This document shows positions 1 to 33,213 of a DNA stretch of 42,656 bases, one piece after another (within the stretch, counting starts at the first letter, position 1; every line of letters starts with the position of its first letter). The notes below the pieces were generated by a model, which worked only from the letters and a program-made list of their open reading frames with translations, was not told the DNA's origin and made no database searches. The stretch comes from a virus (Duplodnaviria > Heunggongvirae > Uroviricota > Caudoviricetes): the IMG/VR virus record IMGVR_UViG_2718218168_000005. The stretch is one strand, 5' to 3'. A program made the position numbers and the translations under genes.

Positions 1-1284
1 TTACAGACTTCTGGAAGGTTGCGCAGCTCTTACAACACGCGGTTGATCTTCCGCAGCGTCTTCCAGCGCACTTAAATCACGGTCTTTCACCTCTGGCATT
101 TTCAGCGCAGAGATTAAACCAATTACTGAATATGCCATGATCATAATGGCGATCGGATACCAGGATTCCGTCATGGTGCAGAAAATACCCGCCAGGATAG
201 GACCAAAACCGGAAGCGATAAGACCACCAATTTCTTTAGAAATAGCCATCCGGGTAAAGCGGTTTTTACAGCCGAACATTTCTGCCATGGTAATGTTTTC
301 CAGAGCAAATAATCCCAGCACCGCACAGTTATGAATCACAATCAGTGCAACCATAATGGTGCTCGGGGCATAGCTTTTATCTACAATGATAGAAAGCATT
401 GGCCATGCCAGCACAATCGCGGAGGTATTCATAATAATATACGGGATCCGGCGACCAATTTTATCGGATAACCAACCAAGGAACGGAATGGTCATAAAGC
501 CGAGAATCGAACTAATCATCAATGCATCTGTTGGAATTGCTTTGTTAAACAATAACGTCTGCACTAAATAGCCTGCAAGGAAAGTCTGAATTAACCCGGA
601 GTTACCCGCCTGACCAAAACGCAGCCCTGTTGCCAGCCAGAAGGATTTGCTCTGGAACATGCTACCAGCAGGTGCAGGTTTTGCTGTGGGTTGGTTGCTG
701 TCATTAACCTTCTCAAAGACCGGGCTTTCTTTCAGATTCATACGTAACCAGATAGCAAAGACCATCACGACAACGCTCGCCAGGAACGGTATACGCCATC
801 CCCACGCCAGCAGTTCCTCTTTACTGAGAATGAAGAACATAAAGGCCCAGATTGCCGTTGCGCTCAAGGTTCCGCAGTTAGTTCCCATAGCTACAAATGA
901 GGAGATAATTCCGCGCTTACCTTTTGGTGCATATTCCGCCAGCATCGTACCGGCACCGGAAATTTCCGCACCTGCACCCAACCCCTGAATAATACGCAGC
1001 GTCACCAGCAAGATGGGGGCAAAAACACCAATCTGTGCATAGGTCGGTAACACACCAATTAAGGTGGTACAGATCCCCATCATGGTGATGGTAATAAAGA
1101 GCACTTTTTTACGCCCTATTCTGTCGCCCATTTTGCCGAAAATAAATGCTCCGACAATACGCGCCACATAACCTGCACCGTAGGTTCCCATTGCCAAAAT
1201 TAACGCCATTGCCGTTGATGATTCAGGAAAAAATATTTCATGAAACACTAACGCTGCGCCGAGCGAATATAACTGGAAATCCAT
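1..1284 (-). CDS. ydfJ: MFS transporter (metabolite:H+ symporter family); 427-aa ORF that appears N-terminally truncated at the prophage junction
   Basis: ORF-track protein has MFS motifs (GxxxDRxGRKK loop) and starts inside what aligns as TM1 of ShiA-type transporters, so about 40 N-terminal residues seem missing; in-frame TGA two codons upstream of the ATG at 1284. Confidence 0.75.
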   Translation of the reverse strand: MDFQLYSLGAALVFHEIFFPESSTAMALILAMGTYGAGYVARIVGAFIFGKMGDRIGRKKVLFITITMMGICTTLIGVLPTYAQIGVFAPILLVTLRIIQGLGAGAEISGAGTMLAEYAPKGKRGIISSFVAMGTNCGTLSATAIWAFMFFILSKEELLAWGWRIPFLASVVVMVFAIWLRMNLKESPVFEKVNDSNQPTAKPAPAGSMFQSKSFWLATGLRFGQAGNSGLIQTFLAGYLVQTLLFNKAIPTDALMISSILGFMTIPFLGWLSDKIGRRIPYIIMNTSAIVLAWPMLSIIVDKSYAPSTIMVALIVIHNCAVLGLFALENITMAEMFGCKNRFTRMAISKEIGGLIASGFGPILAGIFCTMTESWYPIAIMIMAYSVIGLISALKMPEVKDRDLSALEDAAEDQPRVVRAAQPSRSL

Positions 1285-1887
1285 AATTCACAGGTGTTTT
1301 TTCCCATCCTGTGGTTTCCTTGGCGTTTTCTAGGTTTTTTCAGATAGTTGCATTTTTTAAAAAGCATCCTAAGTTCGATCTCTGTGTCTATCTGGGGCCT
1401 ATTTCTGTCCCATATATGCCCCAAAAAAACTCCCCAACAGATAAGTAGTTTTTTCATGGATTTATGCGTAAAATCAAGAACGGCTGGAAATCATTCAATA
1501 CTCACACTATCGAAAAATTTACCAGCCAACCGCAGCACCTTCTTGCATAAGGCGTGTCTGCGGTTTTTCAACTATTCAGATACATCACTCCCATCACATT
1601 CATTCCTCCGCATCAAAGGCATATAGGCTATATCACCTTGATATTTTTCTTTTTCAGATAAAAACTGTTATCTATGTATACTTTTAAACCCAATCCGTGT
1701 AGAGTCTCTGCATAAGATAGTTTGCAGTTGCCGCTTCAGCTTGCGCCATAAACCGCCTGATTTTTGCTGCCACCTGTTAGCATTCCTGTATACCTGAAAC
1801 GACAATGTTTATCTACGAACTTTAAGAACACCCAAGATAAAAATTGTCAACTATATCATATATAACACATTACTAATTCGAGGCTAT

Positions 1888-2001
1888 ATGAACAGCATAC
1901 TGATAATCACATCTCTCCTTATCATATTCAGCATTTTTAGTCATGCCCTAATAAAATTAGGGATTGGCATATCCAATAACCCAGACAAAACCGATGTATA
2001 A
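1888..2001 (+). CDS. hypothetical small hydrophobic peptide (37 aa, [37 protein letters not shown])
   Basis: ATG preceded by AGG 5 nt upstream; single predicted TM helix; below the ORF-track size cutoff; no homolog recognised. Confidence 0.25.
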
Positions 2002-2069
2002 GTCAACATATCCTGAATCAGACATACAATATCGCAATGAAAATCAATAATATTTTAAGGAATATCTTC

Positions 2070-2303
2070 ATGAAATCAAAAGACACCCTAAAGTGGTTCC
2101 CTGCGCAGCTTCCTGAAGTAAGAATTATCCTAGGGGATGCTGTAGTGGAAGTAGCAAAACAGGGAAGACCTATCAATACCAGAACATTGCTTGATTACAT
2201 TGAAGGAAACATAAAGAAAAAATCATGGCTGGATAACAAAGAATTATTACAAACAGCGATATCAGTTCTTAAAGACAACCAAAATTTAAATGGTAAAATG
2301 TAA
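2070..2303 (+). CDS. ydfK: YdfK/YnaE-family prophage cold-shock-induced protein (77 aa)
   Basis: Protein MKSKDTLKWFPAQLPEV... matches recalled YdfK/YnaE; AAGGAA 7 nt upstream of the ATG at 2070; the ORF-track start at 2037 has no SD. Confidence 0.8.
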   Translation: MKSKDTLKWFPAQLPEVRIILGDAVVEVAKQGRPINTRTLLDYIEGNIKKKSWLDNKELLQTAISVLKDNQNLNGKM

Positions 2304-2619
2304 TATAATAAACTTACTTTTTTATCATTTTTCCACTTTAACAACATTTTGCTCCTCTTTTCCACGACCAAACAACTTGAAATCTGGTTAAAATAACACG
2401 CAACACTATTCTTCTTCCTTGAGTCCGCCCGGAACTCGAAAAACAAACCGAGTTAAAGCCATTTTTCACAAAATCGATTTTGGGTCTCACCAAAATTACG
2501 GGGTTGCATACGCATTCGTTTATTTTCGAACGTGTACATACAAATATGCACAAAAATAATCATAATTATTTTCTGAGATGCATTATGATATGAACACCAA
2601 TTTCGTATAGAGTCTCACT

Positions 2620-3210
2620 ATGTCTCAAATTTTTGCTTACTGTCGGATATCAACGCTGGATCAGACCACCGAAAATCAACGCCGGGAAATCGAAAGTGCA
2701 GGTTTTAAAATCAAACCTCAGCAAATAATCGAAGAACACATTAGCGGCTCAGCAGCAACCAGTGAGCGTCCTGGTTTTAACCGGTTGCTTGCTCGCCTGA
2801 AATGTGGTGATCAATTGATTGTGACAAAACTGGATCGCCTTGGTTGTAATGCAATGGATATCAGGAAAACAGTGGAACAACTGACCGAAACAGGTATCAG
2901 AGTGCATTGCTTAGCATTGGGGGGCATTGACCTGACCAGTCCAACAGGAAAAATGATGATGCAAGTAATTTCAGCAGTCGCTGAATTTGAACGAGACCTT
3001 TTACTTGAACGCACTCATTCCGGGATAGTAAGAGCCCGCGGCGCAGGGAAACGTTTTGGTCGACCACCTGTGTTAAATGAAGAACAGAAACAGGTGGTAT
3101 TCGAACGAATTAAGTCAGGTGTAAGTATAAGTGCCATTGCCCGGGAATTCAAAACCTCGCGGCAAACCATTTTAAGAGCCAAAGCAAAACTTCAGACACC
3201 TGACATATAA
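2620..3210 (+). CDS. pinQ: Serine recombinase, Pin/Gin/Hin DNA-invertase family (196 aa)
   Basis: N-terminal catalytic motif YCRISTLDQ and C-terminal HTH typical of Din invertases; position next to ydfK as in Qin/Rac. Confidence 0.9.
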
Positions 3211-3283
3211 AAAATAATCTCGGTGTGAGATGCTTTACGTCTTCCAAGCCCCCTGATCCTACCCACGTAATATGGACACAGGC

Positions 3284-4150
3284 CTAAGCGAGGTTCTTGT
3301 TTTCAAATTGTTCCGGACTGAGGCCGCCACACCAACTGTGCCGCCGCCACCGATTGTAATCACATTCGATATAATTAAACACCGTTGCCCGCATTATTTC
3401 CCGGCTGATAAAGTGTTCTCCATGGATACATTCCACTTTCAGCGAATGAAAGAAGCTTTCCACGCAGGCATTATCGTAGCAGCAACCTTTTGCGCTCATA
3501 CTTCCACGCAGATTATGCCGCTTCAGTTGCGCCTGATAATCTGCTGAACAGTACTGGCCTCCACGGTCCGTGTGAACGATAACGTTCCGGGGCCTCTTAC
3601 GCCGCCACAGCGCCATCTGCAGGGCATCGCAGGCCAGTTGCGCCGTCATGCGTGGCGACATTGACCAGCCAATAACGGCACGTGACCACAGGTCAATGAC
3701 CACTGCCAGATACAGCCAGCCTTCATCTGTACGTAAGTACGTGATGTCTCCTGCCCACTTCTGGTTCGGGCCACTGGCGTAAAAATCCTGCTCCAACAGA
3801 TTTTCTGACACAGGCAGGCCGTGTGCGCGGTAGCTGACCGGGCTGAACTTCCGGGAGGCCTTTGCCCTCAGTCCCTGACGGCGCAGGCTTGCCGCCACGG
3901 TTTTTACGTTAAAGGGGTAACCCTGAGCACGCAGTTCATCCGTCAGGCGTGGGGCACCGTAACGCTGTTTTGACCGGGTAAAAGCCGCGAGGACAACGCT
4001 GTCGCAGTGTTGGCGGAACTGCTGACGCGTGCTTATCCTTGTCCGCCGCTGACACCACGTATACCAGCCGCTGCGGGCCACCCGGAGCACGCGGCACATT
4101 GCTTTGATGCTGAACTCAGCCTGATGTTTTTCAATAAAGACATACTTCAT
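3284..4150 (-). CDS. insF: IS3 transposase OrfB (DDE/rve catalytic domain), normally made as OrfAB by -1 frameshift
   Basis: 288-aa ORF matching recalled IS3 InsF. Confidence 0.9.
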
Positions 4151-4446
4151 TTCAGGCGCTTCGCGAAGTATGTCGCGGCCTTTTGGAGGATAGCCAGCTC
4201 TTCATCCCGTTCTGCCAGCTGGCGTTTGAGACGTGCAATCTCGGTAGACATCTCCAGTTCACGTTCAGAAGACGTCTGCTGATTTTGCTGTTTACTGCGC
4301 CAGTTGTAGAGCTGTGATTCATACAGGCTGAGTTCACGGGCTGCGGCAGTAACACCGATGCGTTCAGCAAGCTTCAGGGCTTCACTGCGAAATTCAGGCG
4401 AATGCTGTTTACGGGGTTTTTTACTGGTTGATACTGTTTTTGTCAT
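4147..4446 (-). CDS. insE: IS3 OrfA (HTH DNA-binding protein, 99 aa)
   Basis: [31 protein letters not shown]... matches IS3 InsE; start taken at MTKTV. Confidence 0.9.
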
Positions 4447-4511
4447 GTGAGTCACCTCTGACTGAGAGTTTACTCACTTAGCCGCGTGTCCACTATTGCT
4501 GGGTAAGATCA

Positions 4512-4683
4512 TCCCATCACTGTCCAGCACCGACGTACTGTTCAGCAGCACGCTTTTTAATCCATCCACCGGACCTTCAATCGGCCCTTCACTGATGGCA
4601 TCAATCACACTCAGCAACTGCGTGGACTTCAGGTTGTCCTTCGCTTCGCGCGGGGTATGCCCCTTACTGCTTCCTTTACCCAT
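4512..4683 (-). pseudogene. J: Lambda J-like tail tip/host-specificity gene, first ~57 codons only, truncated by IS3
   Basis: MGKGSSKGHTPREAKDNLKSTQLLSVIDAISEGPIEGPVDGLKSVLLNST... matches the lambda gpJ N-terminus; reading frame then enters the IS3 end at 4511. Confidence 0.9.
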
Positions 4684-4743: not shown

Positions 4744-5415
4744 TCAGCGACCAATCACCACAACCTGACCACCGTCCCCTTCGTCTGCCGTGCTGATCTC
4801 CTGAGAAACCACGCGTGACCCCACGCGCATTTCCCCGTACAGAACAGGCAGAACATTGCCCTGGGCAACCATGTTATCCAGTGAGGAGAAATAGGTGTTC
4901 TGCTTACCGTTATCCGTTGTCTGTGTACGGGGAGTTCTGGCTTTCGGTGCCAGCATCTGCGCCACACCACCGAGCACCATACTGGCACCGAGAGAAAACA
5001 GGATGCCGGTCATACCACCGGCCCCAATGGCTGCCCCCCATGCTGCAAGGGTGGCTCCGGCGGTAAAGAATGATCCGGCAATGGCGGCAGCCCCCAGGAC
5101 AATCTGGAATACGCCACCTGACTTGGCCCCGGCGACTCTGGGAACAATATGAATCACAGCGCCATCAGGCAGAGTCTCATGTAACTGCGCCGTTAACCCG
5201 GACGTGCTGACGTCCCGCCCGGCAATCCGTACCTGATACCAGCCGTCGCTCAGTTTCTGACGAAACGCCGGGAGCTGTGTGGCCAGTGCCCGGATGGCTT
5301 CAGCCCCCGTTTTCACACGAAGGTCGATGCGGCGACCAAATCGTTGTAAATCCCCGTAAAGGCAGATGCGCGCCATGCCCGGTGACGCCAGAGGGAGTGT
5401 GTGCGTCGCTGCCAT
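4744..5415 (-). CDS. I: Tail assembly protein I (223 aa)
   Basis: Matches lambda gpI in sequence and position. Confidence 0.9.
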   Translation of the reverse strand: MAATHTLPLASPGMARICLYGDLQRFGRRIDLRVKTGAEAIRALATQLPAFRQKLSDGWYQVRIAGRDVSTSGLTAQLHETLPDGAVIHIVPRVAGAKSGGVFQIVLGAAAIAGSFFTAGATLAAWGAAIGAGGMTGILFSLGASMVLGGVAQMLAPKARTPRTQTTDNGKQNTYFSSLDNMVAQGNVLPVLYGEMRVGSRVVSQEISTADEGDGGQVVVIGR

Positions 5416-6056
5416 TTGTCGGTGTACCTCTCTCGTTTGCTCAGTTGTTCAGGAATATGGTGCAGCAGCTCGCCGTCGCCGCAGTAAATTGCGGCGTGAT
5501 TCGGCACCGATGAACCAAAACAGCACAGCAGCACATCGCCCGGCTGTGCCGCTGACAACGGCACCTGATACAGCCCTGTGGCCTCCAGATTATCCAGATA
5601 GAGATTCTGGCCGTTACGCCACCAGTCATCCTCACGATGAAAGGCCGGCATCTCAATCCCCGCCAGATGATAAGCATCCCGGAACAGTGTGTAACAGTCC
5701 GTCACACCGTGCTCAAAGCGCCGCCCGGTGAGATGCGGCACACAGCGGAACTTATGAATCGTCCCCCGGCAGACCAGCCACCACGGCAAATCACTCTGCA
5801 CCTGCAGCCGCCGGTCGGCCTCACTCAGCCAGGGCAGACCACCGGGGTGGCTGTGGACCAGCGCCACAATCTCACCCTGCATTTCTGCCTGCAGCCAGTC
5901 TTCCGGCGACATACGGAAATACGCCTCCGGCTCACCGGAGATATTCACGCAGGGGAAATATCTTTCCCCCTCCGGCGTGCTTACCACGAAGCCGCACGAC
6001 TCCGCTGGCGCACATCGCCGGGCGTGCGCCAGAATCGCTGATTCTGTCTGTGTCAT
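5313..6056 (-). CDS. K: Tail assembly protein K (MPN/JAB plus NlpC/P60-like); 247-aa ORF, classical 199-aa lambda start would be 5912
   Basis: Matches lambda gpK; HSHP metal-binding motif present; ORF extends 48 codons upstream of the classical start and abuts L. Confidence 0.85.
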   Translation of the reverse strand: MTQTESAILAHARRCAPAESCGFVVSTPEGERYFPCVNISGEPEAYFRMSPEDWLQAEMQGEIVALVHSHPGGLPWLSEADRRLQVQSDLPWWLVCRGTIHKFRCVPHLTGRRFEHGVTDCYTLFRDAYHLAGIEMPAFHREDDWWRNGQNLYLDNLEATGLYQVPLSAAQPGDVLLCCFGSSVPNHAAIYCGDGELLHHIPEQLSKRERYTDKWQRRTHSLWRHRAWRASAFTGIYNDLVAASTFV

Positions 6057-6061
6057 GGGAT

Positions 6062-6760
6062 TTACTGCGAAAGTTTGTTAATGGAAAGGAAGCCGCCAAA
6101 GTTGCCGACGTTATTGCGGAACTTACAACCGCTCAGGCATTTGCTGCATTTATCCTTCGTGATATCGGACGTTGGCTGGTCATATTCATCCGCGACAGCC
6201 GGACCGCTATAACCGCACTCGTCACCGCGATAGGTCCAGGTGCAGGTGTTGGCCAGCATGATACGTCCCGGAAAAACAGCGCCATCCGTTTCCGTCGGCG
6301 TGGACAGTACAAAGGAGGCACTCACCGCGCTCAGTTCGCTGCACTGCTCAATGCGCCAGCGGCTGATCACCTCCTGCTCCGGATCGGCGCCACTGTTTCC
6401 GTTGACGAAGTTCACCGCATCCAGAAAACGGGCGTAAACCTTACGCCGGACCACCGTTCCACCGACCAGACTCTGCAGATCTTCCGCCATCCCGGTGACC
6501 ATACCGTACAGGTTAGAAACCGTCAGTGTGGGGCGCGTACTGGTGCCTTTGCCATTCAGTTCAAAACCACTCCCCTGAATGGGATACGGCTGATACTGTC
6601 GCCCCTGCCAGGTGACCGGCTCACCTTTTTCGTTCTGCTCATTACAGAAAAAATAACGTTCTCCACCGACCTCTGTCAGGTCGATTTCCCAGAGCACCAC
6701 GCTGGCCGACTGCTCCGCACGGGTGCATTCATTCAGTGTTTCCTGCCGGATATCCTGCAT
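6062..6760 (-). CDS. L: Minor tail protein L (232 aa)
   Basis: Matches lambda gpL; C-terminal Cys cluster. Confidence 0.92.
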   Translation of the reverse strand: MQDIRQETLNECTRAEQSASVVLWEIDLTEVGGERYFFCNEQNEKGEPVTWQGRQYQPYPIQGSGFELNGKGTSTRPTLTVSNLYGMVTGMAEDLQSLVGGTVVRRKVYARFLDAVNFVNGNSGADPEQEVISRWRIEQCSELSAVSASFVLSTPTETDGAVFPGRIMLANTCTWTYRGDECGYSGPAVADEYDQPTSDITKDKCSKCLSGCKFRNNVGNFGGFLSINKLSQ

Positions 6761-7089
6761 CAGTTCACCACCTGTTCAAACTCTGCGCTGAACTCAACAC
6801 GCAGCATACTGACCCGCGACGACCATTTTGCGCAGGTCACCTTTATCTGCCGCCACTCATAAGGCGGCGTCCACAGAAAGGCTTTCCAGCCCCCGTGCTC
6901 TTCCAGAAACGACTCCAGTACCGTGGCCTCCTCACGGGGGACAGAAAGCGTCACGCTGTACGTTTTCAGGTTGGCATTCAGCCCGGCAGGCGCTCGCTGG
7001 GAATAGCCATCACCAAAGCGCACCTTTCTTACAGAAGGGGCCGAAGCCACATCCATACCGGGTTTCACTTTCCAGCGGAAGGTTTTCAT
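6760..7089 (-). CDS. M: Minor tail protein M (109 aa)
   Basis: Matches lambda gpM. Confidence 0.92.
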   Translation of the reverse strand: MKTFRWKVKPGMDVASAPSVRKVRFGDGYSQRAPAGLNANLKTYSVTLSVPREEATVLESFLEEHGGWKAFLWTPPYEWRQIKVTCAKWSSRVSMLRVEFSAEFEQVVN

Positions 7090-9665
7090 CGTCCACCTCC
7101 GGAGAACAGACCACCATCGCGCATCTGTGCCTGGATTTCATCACGGGCACCCTTGCGGGCCATGTCATACACCGCCTTCATCATCTGTGGACCTGGCAGA
7201 CCATTCGTACCGTCGTTCTGAATCACCACGTGATTGTTCTGATTAAAATTAATGCCTTCAGCCCGCCGCATCTGCGCCGGACTTCCGGCACCGCCCACAT
7301 AACCACCTTCCGCATAGCCCCGCATCAGGCGGTACAGGTTGCCGACACCAATCCGGCTGGTTGCCTCCTTCGTGAAGACAAATTCACCACGGTGAACAAT
7401 CCCCGCTGGCTCATATTTGCCGCCGGTTCCCGTAAATCCCCCGGTCGCAAAATGGAATTTCGCCGCAGCGGCCTGAATGGCTGTACCGCCTGACGCGGAT
7501 GCGCCGCCACCAACAGCCCCGCCAATGGCGTTGCCGATACTCCCGACAATCCCCACCATTGCCTGCTTAAGCAGAATTTCTGTCATCATGGACAGCACGG
7601 AGCGGGTGAAGCTGCGCCAGTTCTGTTCACTGCCGGTCAGCATCGCCGCCATATTCTGCGCAATACCATCAAAGGTCTGCGTGGCTGCACTTTTAACCTG
7701 CGACATACTGTCCGTGGCACTCTCTTTCCACTCGCTCCAGCCGGACCTGAGGCCTGCCATCCAGTTCCCGCGAAGCAGGTCTTCAGCCGCCCAGGTCTTT
7801 TTCTGCTCTGACATGACGTTATTCAGCGCCAGAGGATTATCGCCATACTGTTCCTTCAGGCGCTGTTCCGTGGCTTCCCGTTCTGCCTGCCGGTCAGTCA
7901 GCCCCCGGCTTTTCGCATCAATAGCGGCCCGTTTTGCCCGTTGCTGCTGTGCGAATTTATCCGCCTGCTGCGCCAGCGCGTTCAGGCGCTCCTGATACGT
8001 AACCTTGTCGCCAAGTGCAGCCAGCTGGCGTTTGTACTCCAGCGTCTCATCTTTATGCGCCAGCAGGGATTTCTCCTGTGCAGACAGCTGGCGACGTTGC
8101 GCCGCCTCCTCCAGTACCGCGAACTGACTCTCCGCCTTCCACAAATCCCGGCGCTGCTGGCTGATTTTCTCATTTGCTCCGGCATGCTTCTCCAGCGTCC
8201 GGAGTTCTGCCTGAAGCGTCAGCAGGGCAGCATGAGCACTGTCTTCCTGACGATCGCCCGCAGACACCTTCACGCCGGACTGTTTCGGCTTTTTCAGCGT
8301 CGCTTCATAGTCCTTTTTCGCCGCCGCCATCAGCGTGTTGTAATCTGCCTGCAGAATTTTCCCGTCCTTCAGTGACTTGTTCAGTTCTTCCTGACGGGCG
8401 GTATATTTCTCCAGCGGCGTCTGCAGGCGTTCGTAAGCCTTCTGCGCCTCTTCGGTATATTTCAGCCGTGATGCCTCAGACTCGGCCCAGTCCTTTGCTG
8501 CCATCTCTCTGGCCTTTTCAAGATCGGCCTGCAACGTGGCGGCTGAAAGCCCAAGTTGCGCATTCGCTCTCTTCTCCCATGCTCCCCGGAGATTGGCAAG
8601 AAATGCTGAGGTTTTACCGCGCCGGTGGCTCCGGCTCTGATACCACTGCCATTTTTTGTCCGCCTCATCAAAAGCCTTTTCTGCTTTCTCCAGCATTCCC
8701 TGGGCAGTGTCCGGGCGACCAATATCCAGCACCGAATCCCACATGGATTTGAATGCCCGTGCTGTCCTGTCTGCCCAGGTCTCCAGCGTGCCCATGTTCT
8801 CTTTCAGGCGGCGGGTCTGGTCATCAAACCCTTTCGTTGCGGCCTCGTTCGCCGCCTGCAATGCCCCGGCTTCATCTCCGGAACGCTGCAACTGAGCAAC
8901 ATACGCAATCTGCTCCGCCGTCACGTTATGGAACTGACGTGCCATCGCTGTCAGTCCCGACGTCGGGTCTGTGGTCAGCTTCCCGAAGGCTTCAGCGACC
9001 TTGTCCACCTCCACGCCGGATGCAGAGGAGAAACGCGCCACACTCTGGCTGATCGCCTCAAACTGCTCACCACCACGCACACCGGCATTCACCAGCGCCG
9101 TCAGTGACTCGCTGGTCTGGTTAAACGTCAGCCCTGCCGCCTGCCCGGCTCTGGACAGGACCAGCATACGATCTGCCGTCAGTCCCGCCTGATTGCCGGA
9201 AAGGACCAGCGTTTTGTTGAAATCGGACAGGGTTGAGTTGCCCTGATACCAGGCATACGCCAGCGCACCGGTCGCCACCGCCAGCGAGGTGGCCCCCACC
9301 ATCGGCAGGGTGATCGCACCGGCAAGCCCCCTGAACATGGGGATCATCCCGCCGAAGGAGTCCTTAACCTGACCACCCTGTTGCAGCAGGATCAGCCACG
9401 GGCTTTGCCCGCCTGCAAGCTGCGTGGCCACGTCGGTGAACTGTGCAGGCAGCATACGCATGGCGGCTTTATACTGCCCGACGGAAATCCCCGCTTTCTG
9501 TGCAGCCAGCGCCTGTCGGCTCAGCGACTGTTCAACGACTGCCGCTGTTTTTTTCGCATCAGTTTCCGTACCGGAAAAATGACGCCTGACTCTGGCCATC
9601 TGCTCGTCAAATCTGGCCGCATCCAGACTTAAATCAACGACCAGATCGCCTACCGGTTCAGCCAT
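7086..9665 (-). CDS. H: Tail tape measure protein H (859 aa)
   Basis: Matches lambda gpH at both ends, with a divergent central segment. Confidence 0.92.
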   Translation of the reverse strand: MAEPVGDLVVDLSLDAARFDEQMARVRRHFSGTETDAKKTAAVVEQSLSRQALAAQKAGISVGQYKAAMRMLPAQFTDVATQLAGGQSPWLILLQQGGQVKDSFGGMIPMFRGLAGAITLPMVGATSLAVATGALAYAWYQGNSTLSDFNKTLVLSGNQAGLTADRMLVLSRAGQAAGLTFNQTSESLTALVNAGVRGGEQFEAISQSVARFSSASGVEVDKVAEAFGKLTTDPTSGLTAMARQFHNVTAEQIAYVAQLQRSGDEAGALQAANEAATKGFDDQTRRLKENMGTLETWADRTARAFKSMWDSVLDIGRPDTAQGMLEKAEKAFDEADKKWQWYQSRSHRRGKTSAFLANLRGAWEKRANAQLGLSAATLQADLEKAREMAAKDWAESEASRLKYTEEAQKAYERLQTPLEKYTARQEELNKSLKDGKILQADYNTLMAAAKKDYEATLKKPKQSGVKVSAGDRQEDSAHAALLTLQAELRTLEKHAGANEKISQQRRDLWKAESQFAVLEEAAQRRQLSAQEKSLLAHKDETLEYKRQLAALGDKVTYQERLNALAQQADKFAQQQRAKRAAIDAKSRGLTDRQAEREATEQRLKEQYGDNPLALNNVMSEQKKTWAAEDLLRGNWMAGLRSGWSEWKESATDSMSQVKSAATQTFDGIAQNMAAMLTGSEQNWRSFTRSVLSMMTEILLKQAMVGIVGSIGNAIGGAVGGGASASGGTAIQAAAAKFHFATGGFTGTGGKYEPAGIVHRGEFVFTKEATSRIGVGNLYRLMRGYAEGGYVGGAGSPAQMRRAEGINFNQNNHVVIQNDGTNGLPGPQMMKAVYDMARKGARDEIQAQMRDGGLFSGGGR

Positions 9666-10092
9666 ACCGGACTCCTCCTGCGATCCCTTCTGATACTGTC
9701 ATCAGCATTACGTCATCCTCCGTCATGTCCGCCACATCCGGGGAAGCGGGGATAACTTCATTCCCGTCCGGGCCAAAACGAACGCCTCCGGCAAGCCCTG
9801 CCGCTTTCTGCATCAGCACATCATCTTCAGGCTCTTCGTCAGCCTCGCGCCGGTTCAGCAGACTGAAATCCAGCGGATGCATCTCCGGATCGCTGAAAAA
9901 CAGGCTGAGCACGGTGTACGTCAGCCCGGAAAAGTGCATATCCAGCAGAACATCATGAAAATAATGGGTACTGTAAAAGCGGTGCCAGTCGGCATACTCC
10001 GTGGATGACATCCCGGCAAGCATGGCGCGCCAGTCGGGTCGCCCCATCTCACGCGCCAGTTTCAGGGCAAAACTCAGCTCACCGTCGAACAC
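9658..10092 (-). CDS. T: T segment of the G-T tail assembly chaperone, expressed by -1 frameshift from G
   Basis: ORF matches lambda gpT and overlaps the 3' end of G. Confidence 0.85.
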   Translation of the reverse strand: MFDGELSFALKLAREMGRPDWRAMLAGMSSTEYADWHRFYSTHYFHDVLLDMHFSGLTYTVLSLFFSDPEMHPLDFSLLNRREADEEPEDDVLMQKAAGLAGGVRFGPDGNEVIPASPDVADMTEDDVMLMTVSEGIAGGVRYG

Positions 10093-10496
10093 TTTCCCGC
10101 AGAAACAGGCTCTGCAGGCCCGGCGTCCTCTGCCTGTTCAGGAGCATCATTCACCACAAACTCATACATACCGGACAGCCGGTACACCACGTTTTCAGCA
10201 TGAGAAATTGCCTCTGTGGGCCAGGTGGTAAGCACTTCCTGCTCAATCTGTTTAACGGCTTCATTCATGGAAGGCAGCTTTGTCTTCTTCGGATGGTTAT
10301 GCCACAGGGACATCGCCACCAGAAACGCGCCGGTTCTGATGGCGTCTTCCACAGTAAACTTCCGGTTGCTGTCTGACTCCGCCTGTTCTGCCTGCCGTTT
10401 CATCAGGGCGAGATGCTCAATACGCTGCAGGGCTGACAGTTCAGAAAGCGTGACGGTCACACCGTTATGTTCAAATGATTCGGTTTTCAGGAACAT
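10074..10496 (-). CDS. G: Tail assembly chaperone G (140 aa)
   Basis: Matches lambda gpG. Confidence 0.9.
   Translation of the reverse strand: MFLKTESFEHNGVTVTLSELSALQRIEHLALMKRQAEQAESDSNRKFTVEDAIRTGAFLVAMSLWHNHPKKTKLPSMNEAVKQIEQEVLTTWPTEAISHAENVVYRLSGMYEFVVNDAPEQAEDAGPAEPVSAGKCSTVS
10092..10098 (-). other. Programmed -1 frameshift slippery heptamer GGGAAAG (G to G-T)
   Basis: Heptamer read on the minus strand at the G/T overlap, as in lambda. Confidence 0.75.
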
Positions 10497-10511
10497 CGCT
10501 GACTCTCCGGA

Positions 10512-11252
10512 TTAACTGGCGGTGACGTTGATTTCTGCAACCGCAGCAAACTCACCATTACCGGATACGACCGGAATGTTGACCTTGCCTGCAGCAACAC
10601 CTTTCACGGTGATGGTCATACCACTGACCGACACGGTGGCTTTTGTTTTATCCGCAGACACCGCACGGAAGCTCTTGTCGGTTGCGCCATCCGGCTGGAA
10701 TGCCACGGTCAGCGTGGTGCTCTGCCCTTTCACTACGGAAGCACTGGCGGGTGTCACCGTCATGCCGGTTGTCGCCGTCACCGTGCTGCGATCTTCTGCC
10801 ATCGACGGACGTCCCACATTGGTGACCTTCACCGTGCGGGTAATCACTTCCTTCGCCGTCACCGCCTTACCGATACTGCTGACCCAGCCACGGAACACAT
10901 CGACCGTGCCGTTCGGGAAGCGGATTTTATAGGCACGGGTATCGCCTTCATTAAACCACGCCAGCAGCGCCTGCTGCCCCTGCTCTCCGGGCATCCACGC
11001 CAGCGTGAAGCTGGTATCTCCGGCAGATTTCTGCCCCTGCCCGGTCGCAGTCCAGTCTGCATCTTCATCATCGAGATAGCTGTCGTCATAAGACTCAGCG
11101 GTCAGTTCGCCGGGCGTCAGGTCTTTAACTTTTGCCAGACGCGACCAGTCAACGTCTGAAAGCGGATTCGCATAAGGGTCACCACTCCCCTTATAAACCC
11201 ACAGGGTGGTCCCGGCCCCTTTCACCGGCATTACAGGATTTGGTACAGGCAT
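10512..11252 (-). CDS. V: Major tail protein V (246 aa from MPVPNP start)
   Basis: Matches lambda gpV including the C-terminal Ig-like region; ORF-track start at 11282 is probably too long. Confidence 0.92.
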
Positions 11253-11259
11253 AGCGTCC

Positions 11260-11655
11260 TCACATTTCATAGGTAATGACATAAGTCAGATCGGCTGAAC
11301 TCCACAGGCCCGCATCATCGTCGCGCCGATAGTCATAGCCGCTGGTCACCATACTGGTGATCAAATCTGACAGTGCCGGGATATCACTCATCACCGGATA
11401 AATCCGGGACTCCATCCACGCATCCAGCTCTGAATCCGGCACCTGAGCAGGCAGGAAAACTTCAATATGCAGCTCCGCCTGCCAGGTATCGCTGTCCAGC
11501 TCTTCGCCCGTGTATTCAGCGCCGGTGAGATAAACGGCAATTGCCGGAAAATCTTCCTCATCAAAAACAGCGGGGCGACCATCAAAAAGCGTCGCCCCGG
11601 TGTCATGCTTCTCCAGTGCATCCAGTACGGCTGCTCGGAGTTCAGTATGTTTCAT
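11260..11655 (-). CDS. U: Tail terminator protein U (131 aa)
   Basis: Matches lambda gpU. Confidence 0.92.
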
Positions 11656-12230
11656 CGCTTTATTACCATCCTCAGTTGATGCTGCAGCGCATAGCCCAGC
11701 TCTTTCGGAAGACGCTCACGCCGTATCCGCTCAATATTCTGTTTAAACGCCGTGGTCAGCGGCACCGCCATCGGGATTTTCACCACATCAATGGGGTAAC
11801 GATTTTTCCCGGCCACACGCTGCATGACATGCCAGCGGCCATTTTTCAGTTGCTGAATAAACGCGCCGGGAATACGACGGTTTCCCACCACAAGCACGCT
11901 GCCGCCACCTTTCAGGGCTGAACGCTGCCCCTTTTTACGACGCCTGCGTCGGGACAGGACAATCCGCGCGTTACCCAGCTTTATTACGGGCAAATCCCCC
12001 CGGTTAACCTTGATTCTGGCCTGCGGATTTTTGACCGTGGCCCTTTTCAGCCTGGCCCTTTCCTTTACCAGTTTCCGGCGTACCTTTGTCTCACGGGCAA
12101 CCTGTGACGCCGACTGCGATATCGCGGATGAAGCAACGCGGTTAATGGCCATTGCGGCGGCACCGGGCACCGCCGTTCTGCTGATACGGCTGAGGTTTTC
12201 AACGGCCTGCTCAAGACCTTTTATGGCCAT
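11652..12230 (-). CDS. Z: Tail completion protein Z (192 aa)
   Basis: Matches lambda gpZ. Confidence 0.9.
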   Translation of the reverse strand: MAIKGLEQAVENLSRISRTAVPGAAAMAINRVASSAISQSASQVARETKVRRKLVKERARLKRATVKNPQARIKVNRGDLPVIKLGNARIVLSRRRRRKKGQRSALKGGGSVLVVGNRRIPGAFIQQLKNGRWHVMQRVAGKNRYPIDVVKIPMAVPLTTAFKQNIERIRRERLPKELGYALQHQLRMVIKR

Positions 12231-12241
12231 ACATCCCCCTT

Positions 12242-12595
12242 TCAGCGGCGACGGTTAACGGCAGGCGGTACGCCCCGCCCAAGCCAGAGATGACAGCTTC
12301 CGCCATCATCTGGCGAAATCCGGTCTATCCAGAAGTTTTCCTCACCGATGGTCAGCGTGTCGCCGCGCCGCAGCTGCCGCACATCATCAGTCCGGACAAA
12401 CAGGGACGGGCTGGAGCCTTCAACGCGCACGCCCTGTCCGGCATAGCTGATATTTTCAGGGTCATCAAAAACACCACGTATCACAGCACCGGACTGCTCA
12501 CCGGATGTCATGGTGGCTGACGTTCCCATGTACCCGCGTATCGTTTCATCGGCGCGGGCAATGGCAGCATCGAACAGGTTATCGAAATCAGCCAC
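12242..12595 (-). CDS. FII: Head-tail joining protein FII (117 aa)
   Basis: Matches lambda gpFII. Confidence 0.92.
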   Translation of the reverse strand: MADFDNLFDAAIARADETIRGYMGTSATMTSGEQSGAVIRGVFDDPENISYAGQGVRVEGSSPSLFVRTDDVRQLRRGDTLTIGEENFWIDRISPDDGGSCHLWLGRGVPPAVNRRR

Positions 12596-12606
12596 AGCGC
12601 CTCCCG

Positions 12607-13005
12607 TTATTGCATTCTGGCCAGGCCGCGCTCTGTCATTTCAGCTGCCACACCGGCAGAGACACGGAACGCCGTTCCCGGCAGCACAAATGCCACAGGC
12701 TCATCCCGCGTGGCGTGAAGTGCATCAGTATGCAGCGTCACCAGTGCCACGACCGTGACCAGAGCAGCCGTATCAATCACGGTATCCGGCTGCGCTGATA
12801 CCACCTCATTTTCATGTCCGGTCAGCGCATTTTCCGGGCTGACAGATGTGTCCTGACCGGCAGCGTCATCCGTGTCATCAAGCTCCTCTTCCAGCTCTGC
12901 CACACGGAGCACCAGTTCTTCTTTCGTCCCCGTCAGGCTGACATCACGGTTCAGTTGCTCACCCAGCACCTGAAGACGGGCAATCAGTTCATCTTTCGTC
13001 ATGGA
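12607..13005 (-). CDS. FI: DNA packaging protein FI (132 aa from MTKDEL start)
   Basis: Matches lambda gpFI; ORF-track start at 13041 is probably too long. Confidence 0.88.
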   Translation of the reverse strand, partial: SMTKDELIARLQVLGEQLNRDVSLTGTKEELVLRVAELEEELDDTDDAAGQDTSVSPENALTGHENEVVSAQPDTVIDTAALVTVVALVTLHTDALHATRDEPVAFVLPGTAFRVSAGVAAEMTERGLARMQ

Positions 13006-13043
13006 CTCCTCCACAGAGAGAAAATGGCCCCGAAGGGCCATGA

Positions 13044-14069
13044 TTACGCCAGTTGTACGGACACGAACGCATCAGGGTCAGCCAGCAGCATCAGCGGTGC
13101 TGACTGAATCATGGTGAACTCACGCGCCGGATCGCCGGTGGTCACCCAGTTTTTCGGGTAGCGGGCAGAGGCGTTAATACCTTCGCGCTGTGCGTCCGCA
13201 TCCTGAATGCAGCCATAGGTGCGCAGACCGCGTGCCTGAGTGTTCCCCAGCACCATCGTGTTGTCCGGCAGGAAGTTCTTTTTGACGTCGTTTTCCACGT
13301 ACTGTCCGGAATACACGACGATCGCCGTATCGCCATACATCCCCTTATAGGACACCGCTTCGCCCAGGTCTTTTACCGCTGTCTCCAGCTCGGAATTAGA
13401 GCCGCGACGGGTATCCAGCTTCTCCTTGACGGCTTTGAAGGAACGGAACAGCGCCCAGCCTTTCGGATCAAACACGATGATATTCACCACACCGCTGGCG
13501 TTCAGCGCGTAGGCTTCGATATCGTCGGTCGGGTCATACGTGGACTTGTCACGCTTGCTCCACTCCGTACCGCCGGACTGTGTGATGTTGTTCGCCGCAC
13601 TGCGGCCCATATCCACCTCAACCGGATCGAAGGCTTCACCGGTCATGGTGTATTTGCCCTTAAGCACAGCAGAAACTGCCTGCATCTCTTCGACCTGAGC
13701 AATGGCCAGCTCTTCGTCTCGCATGTTCTGCATGATGATGCGACGGCGGCGGTAAGCCGGGTCCGCCAGATTCTGCGGATCTTCATCCGGCAGGCGACGC
13801 AGGGTCATCTGCGGATTCACCTCATGCTTGGGTTTGACATATCCCGGCGTAAATTCAGAGGTGGAGCCGCCACGGGAACGGATAACCTCACCGGAAACAA
13901 TCGGCGAAACGTACAGCGCCATGTTTACCAGTCCCGGAATTTGTGAGAGATAGACTTTCTCCGTGGTGAAGGGATAGCTCTCACGGAAAAAGAGACGCAG
14001 AAACAGCGGATCAAACTTAAATTTCTGCTCATTTGCCGCCAGCAGCTGGGCGGTTGTGTACATCGACAT
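13044..14069 (-). CDS. E: Major capsid protein E (341 aa from MSMYTTAQ start)
   Basis: Matches lambda gpE over its full length. Confidence 0.95.
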   Translation of the reverse strand: MSMYTTAQLLAANEQKFKFDPLFLRLFFRESYPFTTEKVYLSQIPGLVNMALYVSPIVSGEVIRSRGGSTSEFTPGYVKPKHEVNPQMTLRRLPDEDPQNLADPAYRRRRIIMQNMRDEELAIAQVEEMQAVSAVLKGKYTMTGEAFDPVEVDMGRSAANNITQSGGTEWSKRDKSTYDPTDDIEAYALNASGVVNIIVFDPKGWALFRSFKAVKEKLDTRRGSNSELETAVKDLGEAVSYKGMYGDTAIVVYSGQYVENDVKKNFLPDNTMVLGNTQARGLRTYGCIQDADAQREGINASARYPKNWVTTGDPAREFTMIQSAPLMLLADPDAFVSVQLA

Positions 14070-14124
14070 AAAAAAATCCCGTAAAAAAAGCCGCACAGGC
14101 GGCCTTTAGTGATGAAGGGTAAGG

Positions 14125-14457
14125 TTAAACGATGCTGATTGCCGTTCCGGCAAACGCGGTCCGTTTTTTCGTCTCGTCGCTGGCAGCCTCCGGCCAGAGC
14201 ACATCCTCATAACGGAACGTGCCGGACTTGTAGAACGTCAGCGTGGTGCTGGTCTGGTCAGCATCAACCGCCAGAATGCCAACGGCAGTACCGTCGGTGG
14301 TGCCATCCCACGCAACCAGCTTACGGGTGGAGGTGTCCAGCATCAGCGGGGTCATTGCAGGCGCTTTCGCACTCAATCCGCCGGGCGCGGTTGCCGTATG
14401 TGCCGGGTCACTGTTGCCCAGCGGCTGGTAATGGGTAAAGGTTTCTTTGCTCGTCAT
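14125..14457 (-). CDS. D: Head decoration protein D (110 aa)
   Basis: Matches lambda gpD from [12 protein letters not shown]. Confidence 0.95.
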
Positions 14458-14466
14458 AAACATCCC

Positions 14467-15766
14467 TTACACTGGTGTGTTCAGCAAATCGTTAACGGCA
14501 TCAGATGCCGGGTTACCTGCAGCCAGTGGTGCCGGTGCCCCCTGCATCAGACGATCCAGCGCAGTGTCACTGCGCGCCTGTGCACTCTGTGGTGCAGCTG
14601 CCAGAATGCGGCGGGCCGTTTCCACGGTCATACCGGGGGTTTCGGCCAGCACACGTGCCTGTTCTTCGCGTCCGTGAGCTTCCTCACAGTTGAGGATCCC
14701 CATAATGCGGCTGTTTTCTGCCGCAACCGCAGCGGTGATCTGCGCGTTCACGTCCGGCTGCGCCGCGCTGGCGTTTTCGCCCTCCGTCGCTTGCACCACG
14801 TCAGTAACGTCAGCCTGCGAAGCAGTGGCTGAAACAGTTGTTGATTGAGTCTCTTTGGTCATTCGCCCTCCTGAGAGACGGGATTTACGTGCATCCAGTG
14901 CATCACGCATAACGGTGATCGCATCGGTGCTGTTGACAAGTTCATCAGCCAGTCCGGCATCAATGGCCTCCTGACCGCTGTACATTGCAGCCTCGGTATC
15001 CAGCACAGCCTGCACGGACAGGCCGGTATATGCCGACACCTTCTGCGCAAACATCCGGCGGGTTGCATCCATCCGGGACTGCAGTGTCTCCCGGACATCA
15101 CCCGGTAGATGGCTGTAGGGGTTGCCATCCACCTTATGGCTGCCGCTGTAAATCAGCGTGATTTCCACGCCCTGTTTCTCCAGCGCAGCGCCGTAATTAC
15201 TGTGAGCCATCATGACGCCGATGGAGCCTGTCCGGGCGGTCTGCGTGACCAGACGCCGGGAGGCGGCGCTGGCAAGCAGCTGACCTGCACTGCAGTTCAT
15301 GTCGTTGGCCAGCGCCCATACCGGCTTTATGTCACGCACACGGGCGATGATGTCAGCACAGTCAAATGCTCCCGCCACCATCCCGCCCGGTGTGTCCATA
15401 TCGAGCAGAATGCCGTCCACCATCGGATCGCTGGCAGCCTGTTGCAGACGAGCGATAATGCCGTTGTAACCGGTCATTCCCGAATACGGCTGCAGCGCCC
15501 GCGTCCGGCTGACCAGCGTACCGGACACCGGCAGCACGGCGATGCCGTTCATGACCTGATAACTGCGGGCCTGTCGTGGTCCGTCATCATCACCGGATAA
15601 CGCCAGCGCCGCGGGTGCCTCTCCGGCAGTCAGGCTATCGCCGGATACTGCATCCGTCAGGCGACTGATCCCAAGCTGGCCTGCAAGCGCACAAAAGAAA
15701 ACCCGCGCATAGGCGGGTTCAAGCATCAGCGGCTCATTAAAAGCCATGCTGGCAATATGCGGGAGA

Positions 15767-15786
<20 letters not shown>
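14467..15786 (-). CDS. C: Capsid assembly protease C (439 aa) with in-frame Nu3 scaffold in its 3' part; GTG start
   Basis: Matches lambda gpC from (V)TAELRNLPHIASMAF; GTG codon at 15786..15784 overlaps the end of B by 20 nt as in lambda. Confidence 0.9.
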
Positions 15787-19467
<3,681 letters not shown>

Positions 19468-19493
<26 letters not shown>

Positions 19494-20013
19494 TCAGCAA
19501 CCCCGGTATCAGTTCATCCAGCGCGGCTGCTTTGTTCATGGCTTTGATGATATCCCGTTTCAGGAAATCAACATGTCGGTTTTCCAGTTCCGGAAAACGC
19601 CGCTGCACCGACAGGGGGATCCCGTCGAGAATACTGGCAATTTCACCTGCGATCCGCGACAGCACGAAAGTACAGAATGCGGTTTCCACCACTTCAGCGG
19701 AGTCTCTGGCATTTTTCAGCTCCTGTGCGTCGGCCTGCGCACGCGTAAGTCGATGGCGTTCGTACTCAATAGTCCCTGGCTGGAGATCTGTCTCGCTGGC
19801 CTGCCGCAGTTCTTCAACTTCCCGGCGCAGCTTTTCGTTCTCAATTTCAGCATCCCTTTCGGCATACCATCTTATAACGGCGGCAGAGTCATAAAGCACC
19901 TCATTACCCTTGCCACCGCCTCGCAGAACGGGCATTCCCTGTTCCTGCCAGTTCTGAATGGTACGGATACTCGCACCGAAAATGTCAGCCAGCTGCTTTT
20001 TGTTGACTTCCAT
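19468..20013 (-). CDS. Nu1: Terminase small subunit Nu1 (181 aa)
   Basis: Matches lambda gpNu1 (MEVNKKQLADIFGASIRTIQNWQEQGMP...). Confidence 0.95.
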
Positions 20014-30817: not shown

Positions 30818-32158
30818 TCAATCTTTTTTATCGGGATCAGGCTTCTTTTTAGGTAACTTCGGGGGCTTAACTTGCTGATGACTTTGCGTTCGGCGCGTAA
30901 GCCAGGGATGGTCAGCTTTAGGTTTAACATAGTATTTTGAGCGTAAATCAATACGGGCATTATCCACTCGTTCATGGACACTCTTTTCATCATCCAGTGG
31001 TATAGGCTCCGGGCCATCAACATACTTTTCCCAGCCCAGCGCTTTCCCGTCATACAGAACGTTAATTTCACCGTCAAAGTTCTCGCATACAGTAACAACC
31101 GAATGCCTAAGTCGATATCCCCGGCTCTCACTGCGTACCTGAAACGCACTGCTTTTGTACTGGAAAGTGAGATTTTTAGACAGAACGCGCTTCGCCTGTA
31201 GGCTGAAGATATAACCCAGTTCCTCTTCAGAATGGTGCACATCAAGATGAGCATTATCAGTAGTACGAGGCGACGTAGCGAACCGGTTGTTATAGGCTTC
31301 AATAAAGGTCGGCAACCATGCATTTGCTGTTTCAATATCACTGATATTCTGAAGCCGCATTTCTTTGACCAGCCTGTCCTGTAGTGTCTGATTGGCGCGC
31401 TCTACCCGCCCTTTTGCCTGCGGGCTGTTGGCATGGATTGGCTCGATGCCCAGTGTCTTTATCGCACGAGTGAACTGGGTCAGCTCACCTTCCCGCTCTG
31501 GGTTATTTACCCTGAATATACTGTGTCTATCAGAGTAGAGAGCGAGCGGTACGCCATGATCATTAAGGTAACCCCGGAGGGTTTCCATGTAAGCCCGGGT
31601 TGTTTCAGCAGGCACAAAACGCAACGCCATCAACGCACTGGTGGCATCATCAATGAAAACGATCAGTGTACATCTGGGGCCTCGATTTTCAAACCAGTCA
31701 TGAGGTGAGCCATCAATCTGGATCAGTTCACCGTAAGATGGTCGTCGCATGCGGCGTTGATATATACGGGCAATTTTACGACGGCGTTCACGCCATAACC
31801 CCTCTTCTATCATCCACTTTCTGAGAGTTTCAACGGATAAAGATAAACCGTGTATCTCGCGCAATTTTTCGCACGCAAACGTAGGTCCAAAATCAGCGTA
31901 ACGGCCTTTGAGGAGTGAAATTACTGTTGCTCTGAATTCAGTAGAAAAGGAATTATTAGGACGCTTTCCACGTCGGTGGGAAACCAGACCAGAAGGCCCT
32001 TCATTTCTATACCGTTGCACCAGACGTTTAACCTGCCGAATAGAAATGCCAATGCGTGCCGCAGCTTGTTCCTGAGTAATATGTCGATTAATTGACTCCT
32101 GAATAATCTGAAGTCGGTGGAGTTCCTTATGACTCATCGTAACAGTCTCTTTGATCAT
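30818..32158 (-). CDS. DDE transposase with rve (integrase core) domain and N-terminal HTH, IS481/IS1202-like (446 aa)
   Basis: Motifs IQIDGSPHDW, FIDDATS and ANSPQAKGRVERANQTLQ form a DDE triad; element boundaries not identified. Confidence 0.75.
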   Translation of the reverse strand: MIKETVTMSHKELHRLQIIQESINRHITQEQAAARIGISIRQVKRLVQRYRNEGPSGLVSHRRGKRPNNSFSTEFRATVISLLKGRYADFGPTFACEKLREIHGLSLSVETLRKWMIEEGLWRERRRKIARIYQRRMRRPSYGELIQIDGSPHDWFENRGPRCTLIVFIDDATSALMALRFVPAETTRAYMETLRGYLNDHGVPLALYSDRHSIFRVNNPEREGELTQFTRAIKTLGIEPIHANSPQAKGRVERANQTLQDRLVKEMRLQNISDIETANAWLPTFIEAYNNRFATSPRTTDNAHLDVHHSEEELGYIFSLQAKRVLSKNLTFQYKSSAFQVRSESRGYRLRHSVVTVCENFDGEINVLYDGKALGWEKYVDGPEPIPLDDEKSVHERVDNARIDLRSKYYVKPKADHPWLTRRTQSHQQVKPPKLPKKKPDPDKKD

Positions 32159-32166
32159 GAAAAATC

Positions 32167-32186
32167 CCCCAGAGAATTGTCTGGGG
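32167..32186 (-). promoter_or_regulatory. Hairpin overlapping the transposase Shine-Dalgarno sequence
   Basis: Perfect 7-bp stem ccccaga/tctgggg with 6-nt loop; on the minus strand the GGGGGA SD lies within and next to the 3' arm. Confidence 0.4.
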
Positions 32187-32492
32187 ACATTTTAGAATGG
32201 TTCAAAGGGGACATTACAGCTTGGTGTTAACAATAGCCTGCTTCTCCGTGCCTTTCGGCACGTAAGAGGCTAACCTACATGTGTCTAGCATGAAATTGGC
32301 CTCAGATTAATGTTAAGCGTCTTGCAGGACGCGTAATGTTAACTGGGGCTTTTCTCTATCTGCCGTTGGTGTCCATGCCCGAGGCAGATAGCCTCAAGCA
32401 CCCGCAGTCATTCTACTTAACTAAGATTTCCCCGCAAACCGTTTTTGTCCAGCACAGTAAATATCCAACTAAACCAATGGAGTTCGCTGTAT

Positions 32493-32672
32493 TTACCGCC
32501 AGTATTCAATGCACATGACCGCCATGAACACCCCTAAAAAAAGGGCATTTATATATCCAAATATTAATATCAAAACATCAACTTTTTCCATATACCTTGC
32601 TGTGAAGATGATGGGCATACATGATGCGAACAACCAGAACGCAACAAACAAAAACTGCAATGCGTTTTTCAT
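32493..32672 (-). CDS. hypothetical small membrane protein (59 aa, two predicted TM segments)
   Basis: AGGAGG 5 nt upstream of ATG; MKNALQFLFVAFWLFASCMPIIFTARYMEKVDVLILIFGYINALFLGVFMAVMCIEYWR. Confidence 0.45.
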   Translation of the reverse strand: MKNALQFLFVAFWLFASCMPIIFTARYMEKVDVLILIFGYINALFLGVFMAVMCIEYWR

Positions 32673-32958
32673 TATTCCTCCTACAATCAATGTGCAATTA
32701 CATTTAAACACACCTCAATTTGGCCGGACATATAAATATCTAAACCAGAAAAAATCACTTACATAGCGTTACAAACTCTTTAGTCTAAAGGTTCATCGTA
32801 AAACATTCCCCATACTTATCAGTCCGTTCCGCGCCAGGTAGCTCATTGCCTTATCTGGCAACCTGTAATCAGGTTTCCGCTTTTTCAGTTGGCTGGTCGT
32901 TTAACCGACATAGTTAATCCATTAATCTAGTTGCCGGATGTTGGTGGATTTTCGCGTT

Positions 32959-33213
32959 TTAGTTGTTCATAAAAGTGCACAGCTTTAACCAGTTCTTCTG
33001 ATGTAACCGGGACTGGTGAGGCAGTGAATAAGGCCTGAATTTGATAGTTCGGCCTGTCGTTACAATCCTCTTTTTTCGGTACATATTTCCAGTCACCAGA
33101 CCACTACTTCCCCTGAAAGTCCGTAACGCTTTTTTCACGTAGCGATATCGCCATGCCACTGGTTTTGCTTGCCCCGCCGTTTCATGCCCTTCCTGATAAT
33201 TAATCTCGCTCAT
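32959..33213 (-). pseudogene. Possible disrupted gene: best-looking reading frame is interrupted by an in-frame TAG and flanked by A6 runs
   Basis: Hand translation in three frames; the frame ending ...PVPVTSEELVKAVHFYEQLKRENPPTSGN looks protein-like but is cut by TAG, and the ORF-track 84-aa frame looks low-complexity. Confidence 0.3.

Follow-up and report, generated by a model that had tools for sequence, protein, structure and literature searches.

The window analyzed here (the whole stretch of DNA, 42,656 nucleotides long) runs from a fragment of the chromosomal gene ydfJ to the stop codon of an integrase gene. With these boundaries it is one whole prophage (1-42656), a full-length form of Qin with all the head and tail-shaft genes that are missing from the Qin prophage of K-12. 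Integration in ydfJ, together with the set of Qin accessory genes, identifies it as a Qin-type lambdoid prophage. The same ydfJ' flank is also common to strains S43, ZYB62, MB06022, and UC4224. Transfer of the annotation of the prophage of Escherichia coli N1286 gives the gene order ynfT, ydfK, pinQ, and IS3, then (in N1286) tfa, stf, lom, and J, and then I through nohA. Beyond nohA, the transferred genes are ynfO, ydfO, gnsB, the csp genes (cspI/B/F), lysis genes, and a Q-like antiterminator, and further ones are relBE, hokD, flxA, dicA/dicC-like repressors, dicB, an exonuclease, xis, and int. The features needed for what follows are these, in window coordinates:

1-1284, minus strand: ydfJ' fragment, the chromosomal gene interrupted by the prophage and the Qin attachment locus; equal to 1-1284 of N1286 locus L006
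2620-3210, plus strand: pinQ, an intact serine DNA invertase gene reading toward the tail-fibre genes; Pfam Resolvase (2.5e-36) and HTH_7; the identical gene is named pinQ in RefSeq
3211-3253 (43 bp): pinQ-proximal piece of the former pinQ-tfa spacer, ending in CCC, the surviving left copy of the duplication
3254-4511, minus strand: complete IS3, 1258 bp
about 3254-3292: right inverted repeat (IRR) of IS3, starting TGATCCTACCCACG... at 3254
3284-4150, minus strand: orfB of IS3, with HTH_21, rve, and rve_2 (DDE) by Pfam
4147-4455, minus strand: orfA of IS3, with HTH_Tnp_1 by Pfam
4179-4186, minus strand: A4G frameshift motif CCAAAAGG, within the orfA/orfB overlap
about 4473-4511: left inverted repeat (IRL) of IS3, TGATCTTACCCAGC...; the window strand reads ...GCTGGGTAAGATCA to 4511
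4474-4683, minus strand: J'-IS3 fusion ORF, 57 residues of J and 11 encoded by IS3 (MILPSNSGHAAK tail), then a stop; no Pfam domain
4512-4683, minus strand: J' remnant, the first 57 codons and one base, joined directly to IRL; its translation equals residues 1-57 of N1286 J
4744-20013, minus strand: rest of the late operon (I, K, L, M, H, T/G, V, U, Z, FII, FI, E, D, C, B, W, A, nohA/Nu1), intact
20446: position in ynfO that matches the endpoint of the deletion in S43 and MB06022, given for comparison only
30818-32158: remnant of an ISEsa1-like (IS1202-like) transposase gene, with HTH and partial rve; common to N1286

The cryptic Qin of K-12 shares with the window the ydfJ locus and an orphan pinQ that reads toward tfa, and its accessory genes ynfT, ydfK, pinQ, ynfO, ydfO, gnsB, cspI/B/F, rzpQ, rrrQ, relBE, hokD, flxA, and dicB are also found here. 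It differs in that the head and tail-shaft operon is complete in the window and an integrase is present, and in that the loss of the tail-tip and fibre genes in the window is anchored on IS3.

The element next to pinQ belongs to IS3 (IS3 family, IS3 group), as its length, its repeats, the two overlapping ORFs, and the frameshift motif fit that element. Its terminal inverted repeats are of the TG...CA type and imperfect, with 28 matches in the first 39 positions. The copies in N1286, S43, ZYB62, MB06022, ZYS9073, and MB06172 show 0 differences from it, in all six cases, and the identical sequence is labeled in RefSeq as [quoted passage not shown] The initial annotation had described a complete IS3 flanked by ccc on one side and tcc on the other, and this is what the window holds: CCC at 3251-3253 on the left, TCC at 4512-4514 on the right, and no 3-bp target-site duplication. 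It had placed one flank at about codon 57 of J, in agreement with the 172 bases of J that are kept (57 codons plus one base). The other was said to lie 44 bp past the pin stop codon; IS3 does lie just past the stop of pinQ, which ends at 3210, but the distance between them is 43 bp and the element starts at the 44th base. If the IRL boundary were shifted outward by a single base, the flanks would become CCC and CCC. This redefinition was rejected because T4512 is J's own base (N1286 J reads ...GGTAT/TCCCATC across the breakpoint) and because the other IS3 copies all end in ...GATCA. The possibility that redefined ends would reveal an identical duplication is thus not borne out, as no alternative definition of the ends yields one. 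For annotators, the absence of a target duplication at this IS3 is to be read as the signature of a deletion, not of wrongly drawn IS ends.

The undeleted state of the locus is present in the Qin-locus prophage of N1286 (NZ_CP178401.1), which differs from the window by 5 SNPs in 41.8 kb (99.99% identity). The two align in two blocks, 1-4511 and 4512-41798, separated by one gap of 8,202 bp. There is 1 SNP in the left 3,253 bp of the window, and on the other side of the gap, where window position 4512 corresponds to position 21661 of N1286 locus L003, the following 2,740 bp contain 0 mismatches. N1286 has the same IS3 (0 differences) at the same site, reading ...AAGCCCCC-IS3-CCCTTCC..., with CCC duplicated. 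Beyond IS3 it carries tfa (191 aa, Caudo_TAP), stf (phage_tail_N/Collar), lom (Ail_Lom), and a full-length J of 1159 aa in which all gpJ domains are present by Pfam.

Relative to N1286, the window lacks exactly 8,202 bp, namely 13459-21660 of L003, or 4512-12713 of L006. Gone with this segment are the IRL-side copy of CCC, tfa, stf (1176 aa), lom, and all of J beyond the first base of codon 58 (codons 58-1159). On the left, the break falls at the base immediately outside IRL, and the endpoint, 4511/4512, is unambiguous and shows no microhomology. The right flank consists of DNA that was once distal, collinear and in unchanged orientation, joined exactly at the IS terminus, and the duplication is lost. 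The ORF lengths from I through nohA equal those of the intact N1286 coding sequences, with only 2 SNPs against N1286 across 4744-20013 (at 7531 and 18244); as the late operon is intact over this range, the deletion stopped inside J. The initial annotation had proposed, from the window, an IS3-associated adjacent deletion that removed the rest of J and the side-tail-fibre and assembly genes, and the clean loss relative to N1286, starting at the IS3 terminus, supports this. Its list of lost genes holds for the rest of J, stf, and tfa, and was too short by one gene, since lom was also deleted. The 69-codon ORF at 4474-4683 should be annotated as a J'-IS3 fusion remnant. The IS3-J' junction of the window was found in none of the 5,426 complete E. 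coli genomes, the GTDB species representatives, and the metagenome contigs, and this deletion allele looks private to the source strain.

The arrangement CCC-IS3-CCC between pinQ and tfa is seen in N1286, ZYB62, and ZYS9073. This indicates that the duplication formed first and that one copy of it was deleted later; it leaves the membership of the element in IS3 unaffected. Both junctions of the simple insertion are found in seven complete genomes (N1286, ZYS9073, MEI005, MEI2A-0323, JNEC-KY180, TUM1880, and ZYB62). A comparison with related prophages that retain J-stf-tfa-pin had been put forward with the initial annotation, and such prophages exist and give the predicted result: the order J-lom-stf-tfa-IS3-pinQ is retained in N1286 and five other genomes, with the same IS3 and the CCC duplication. 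We also rebuilt the empty site in silico, by removing IS3 and one CCC, and searched for it in genomes. Many genomes contain this sequence, with one CCC only, at 100% identity, and the query is covered to at least 80% in 2,648 genomes. The existence of such a site implies that the ends of IS3 are rightly defined and that the element came as an ordinary insertion into the pinQ-tfa spacer.

Nine complete genomes and the window, ten carriers in all, have the pinQ-IRR junction. The IRL-tfa junction is kept in seven of them and lost in three, through two different deletions on the IRL side. In S43 and MB06022, the pinQ-IS3 junction is the same as in the window, but IRL abuts the interior of ynfO (at the equivalent of window position 20446) and the whole late operon is gone. 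Hence, there are distinct IRL-anchored endpoints, although from two events only: codon 57 of J in the window and ynfO in S43 and MB06022. Classically, IS-anchored deletions are recognized by this pattern, in which one end is fixed at the IS and the distal end varies. Deletions of the same insertion on the IRR (pinQ) side were not found, and all 7 genomes with the IRL-tfa junction keep pin-IRR. This bias toward the IRL side stems from two events, too few for proof, and selection or chance could also produce it.

We are highly confident that the best overall explanation of the locus is a simple insertion of IS3, followed by an IS3-dependent loss of the DNA adjoining IRL in which IS3 was retained. 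The prophage, a full-length lambdoid one seated in ydfJ, first received one copy of IS3 in the spacer of about 100 bp that separates pinQ from tfa, and CCC was duplicated. Subsequently, the 8,202 bp outside IRL were lost with IS3 intact, and the 3' flank of pinQ is now joined via IS3 to codon 57 of J. As for the chemistry of this second step, we favor, with moderate confidence, an intramolecular "adjacent deletion" mediated by the transposase: the IS ends would attack a TCC in the neighboring J gene of the very molecule that carries them, and the stretch in between would be released as a circle. IS3 is known to make deletions of various lengths beside itself quickly (PMC8860574). Of the 83 IS events in the long-term evolution experiment, 14 were deletions by IS150, another member of the IS3 family, that lacked a target duplication; each arose beside a copy already in place, and they often became longer with time (PMC11708052). 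The same end product could instead have been reached by a longer path, in which J received a second, directly oriented IS3 at codon 57/58, with duplication of TCC, and RecA-dependent recombination between the two copies then deleted one of them along with the 8.2 kb. This path, to which we give a lesser but substantial weight, predicts the observed structure exactly (one intact IS3, CCC from the first copy, and TCC from the second), and the rbs deletions anchored on IS150 in the long-term evolution experiment are attributed to insertion followed by recombination (PMC7881107). The final sequence is alike under the one-step and two-step routes, and holds no sign of transposase involvement in the second step. 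We nevertheless prefer the adjacent deletion because the two-step route demands a local, rightly oriented hop twice at one IS3 copy (once for the window and once for S43/MB06022). In addition, the IS3-J junction of its intermediate is absent from the same 5,426 complete genomes, GTDB species representatives, and metagenome contigs, which is weak evidence since such an intermediate would be short-lived.

Two other explanations do without any IS3-dependent loss of DNA. The window could be an artefact in which the assembler collapsed two real copies of IS3, one between pin and tfa and one in J, and dropped the 8.2 kb between them. IS3 is indeed multicopy, with a median of 3 places per genome, and the collapse of repeats is a known failure mode of assembly. 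However, the contig crosses this 1258-bp multicopy repeat and otherwise follows a finished genome collinearly over 41.8 kb at 99.99% identity, which argues for a long-read or finished assembly and makes a collapse very improbable. Even a collapse would leave J broken by IS3 at codon 57. More improbable still is a deletion independent of the IS (by slippage, illegitimate recombination, or the action of Pin) that ended at the IS3 terminus by chance. Prophages also decay in IS-independent ways, for example in the K-12-like Qin of ZYB62, but nothing in this is specific to the window, and three observations speak against it: the endpoint coincides to the base with the IRL terminus of IS3 and lacks microhomology, a second independent deletion ends at the same base, and a pin-J' junction lacking IS3, a possibility already raised with the initial annotation, was sought in related genomes and found in none of the 5,426.

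The IS3-dependent deletion that we prefer closely resembles the adjacent ("IS-del") deletions of IS3-family elements. Both involve a pre-existing and intact IS, start at its terminus, and lose the target-site duplication, and both show variable distal endpoints, with nested or extended deletions from one copy. The window differs in that it comes from a natural isolate and not from a laboratory population, and in that the deleted genes are prophage tail genes. A further point of comparison is the IS excision enhancer (IEE), which usually removes the IS as well; in the window, IS3 is intact. The deletions that IEE promotes beside IS3-family elements in EHEC (PMC8860574) are similar in that they begin at the IS end. 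Both IS-anchored deletion and prophage decay are already well documented, and only this allele is new to the databases searched. Its interest lies in being a clean natural example of an insertion sequence that turns a nearly complete prophage cryptic. The example is unusually clear because there is a "before" state of 99.99% identity and a second, larger deletion from the same IS end.

The two deletions, taken together with the intact form, suggest a broader scenario, which we regard as possible but rather unlikely. A single IS3 downstream of pinQ could act as a fixed, one-sided generator of deletions, always on the IRL side, and erode the late operon of full-length Qin stepwise. The isolates would then form a series, from the intact state (the N1286 type), through the loss of 8.2 kb (the window), to the loss of everything up to ynfO (S43 and MB06022). 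If this were true, erosion driven by IS3 would be a route from a complete lambdoid prophage to a cryptic Qin of the K-12 style, and the IRL bias would reflect the chemistry of transposition and not chance. The K-12-like form found in ZYB62 is different in this respect, as its late genes were lost via other internal deletions.

The loss of J may have consequences for the prophage. The gpJ central fibre, the side tail fibres, their assembly chaperone, and the outer-membrane protein Lom would all be missing, while the genes for the head, the tape measure, and the tube are intact. In the work of Katsura and co-workers on the assembly of the lambda tail, heads could reportedly form without gpJ, and there were no functional tails. 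Tal, Dit, and the tape-measure protein constitute the tail initiator complex of siphoviruses, and gpJ is the Tal and receptor-binding protein of lambda (PMC7291167). The 57-residue stub of J encoded in the window has no Pfam domain. Since gpJ is part of the initiator complex and the stub lacks domains, tail assembly is expected not to start, and the probable outcome is a complete lack of tails, not tails defective in adsorption. The initial annotation had predicted that no adsorption-competent tails could be made although the head and tail-shaft genes look intact. These genes are indeed intact, as judged from ORF lengths equal to the N1286 coding sequences, but the expected defect is a stronger one. 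The J-defective mutants of lambda are the closest parallel in that gpJ (Tal, the receptor-binding central fibre) is lost (PMC7291167). Unlike them, the window also lacks stf, tfa, and lom and has additional lesions in the early region. For annotators, the prediction is that this prophage cannot yield tailed particles.

These additional lesions are older than the deletion. Besides the ISEsa1-like transposase remnant, two early genes are frameshifted according to the annotation of N1286 (the remnant and the frameshifts lie within 30818-34135 of the window). Since the older lesions are common to N1286, the prophage was probably already defective before the deletion in J, and the loss of J would not be the first disabling lesion. 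It may even have been non-inducible by then.

The product of pinQ, the invertase gene next to IS3, has a Resolvase catalytic domain and a C-terminal HTH_7, as in the serine invertases Pin, Gin, and Hin. In N1286, where the region is undisturbed by the deletion (L006 3211-5144), about 100 bp separate tfa from the stop of pinQ, and there is no invertible or alternative fibre cassette. We found no gix- or hix-like sites (up to 6 mismatches in 26) in the window or in the tail-fibre region of N1286, in a search that is a weak test. From these observations, pinQ is best described as an orphan invertase here. Pin-mediated recombination was also considered as a source of the deletion and rejected, because the breakpoint lies on the IS terminus and such sites were not found, the site search again counting as a weak test.

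Two of the other records with this IS3 insertion have features of their own. In ZYB62 (NZ_CP074366.1, L004 4201-8253), a K-12-like eroded Qin holds the same insertion with its CCC duplication, together with tfaQ, a C-terminal piece of stf, an internal fragment of J, and an N-terminal piece of nohA. Either the insertion is older than the K-12-type internal deletions, or the pinQ-IS3-tfa segment was spread by recombination. In ZYS9073, the record named "plasmid pZYS9073-B" (NZ_CP159531.1, L008) is a linear sequence of 115 kb on which the Qin prophage lies together with chromosomal ydfG-rspR-ydfZ-ydfI-ydfJ'. Despite its label as a plasmid, this record looks like a piece of the chromosome that was left unplaced.

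Finally, IS3 is found at other positions of the same gene module. At the Rac locus of MB06172 (L002 9402-10659), an identical IS3 lies between tfa' and stf', flanked by AAT and CCT, where it replaces 666 bp of the intact tfa-stf; with flanks that do not match, this is a second IS3-associated deletion in the module. At the Qin locus of UC4224 (L007 7502-8759), an IS3 with 2 differences from the copy in the window sits inside tfa with a clean CCG duplication. Judged by these insertion sites, the pin-tfa-stf module has been struck by IS3 at least three independent times.
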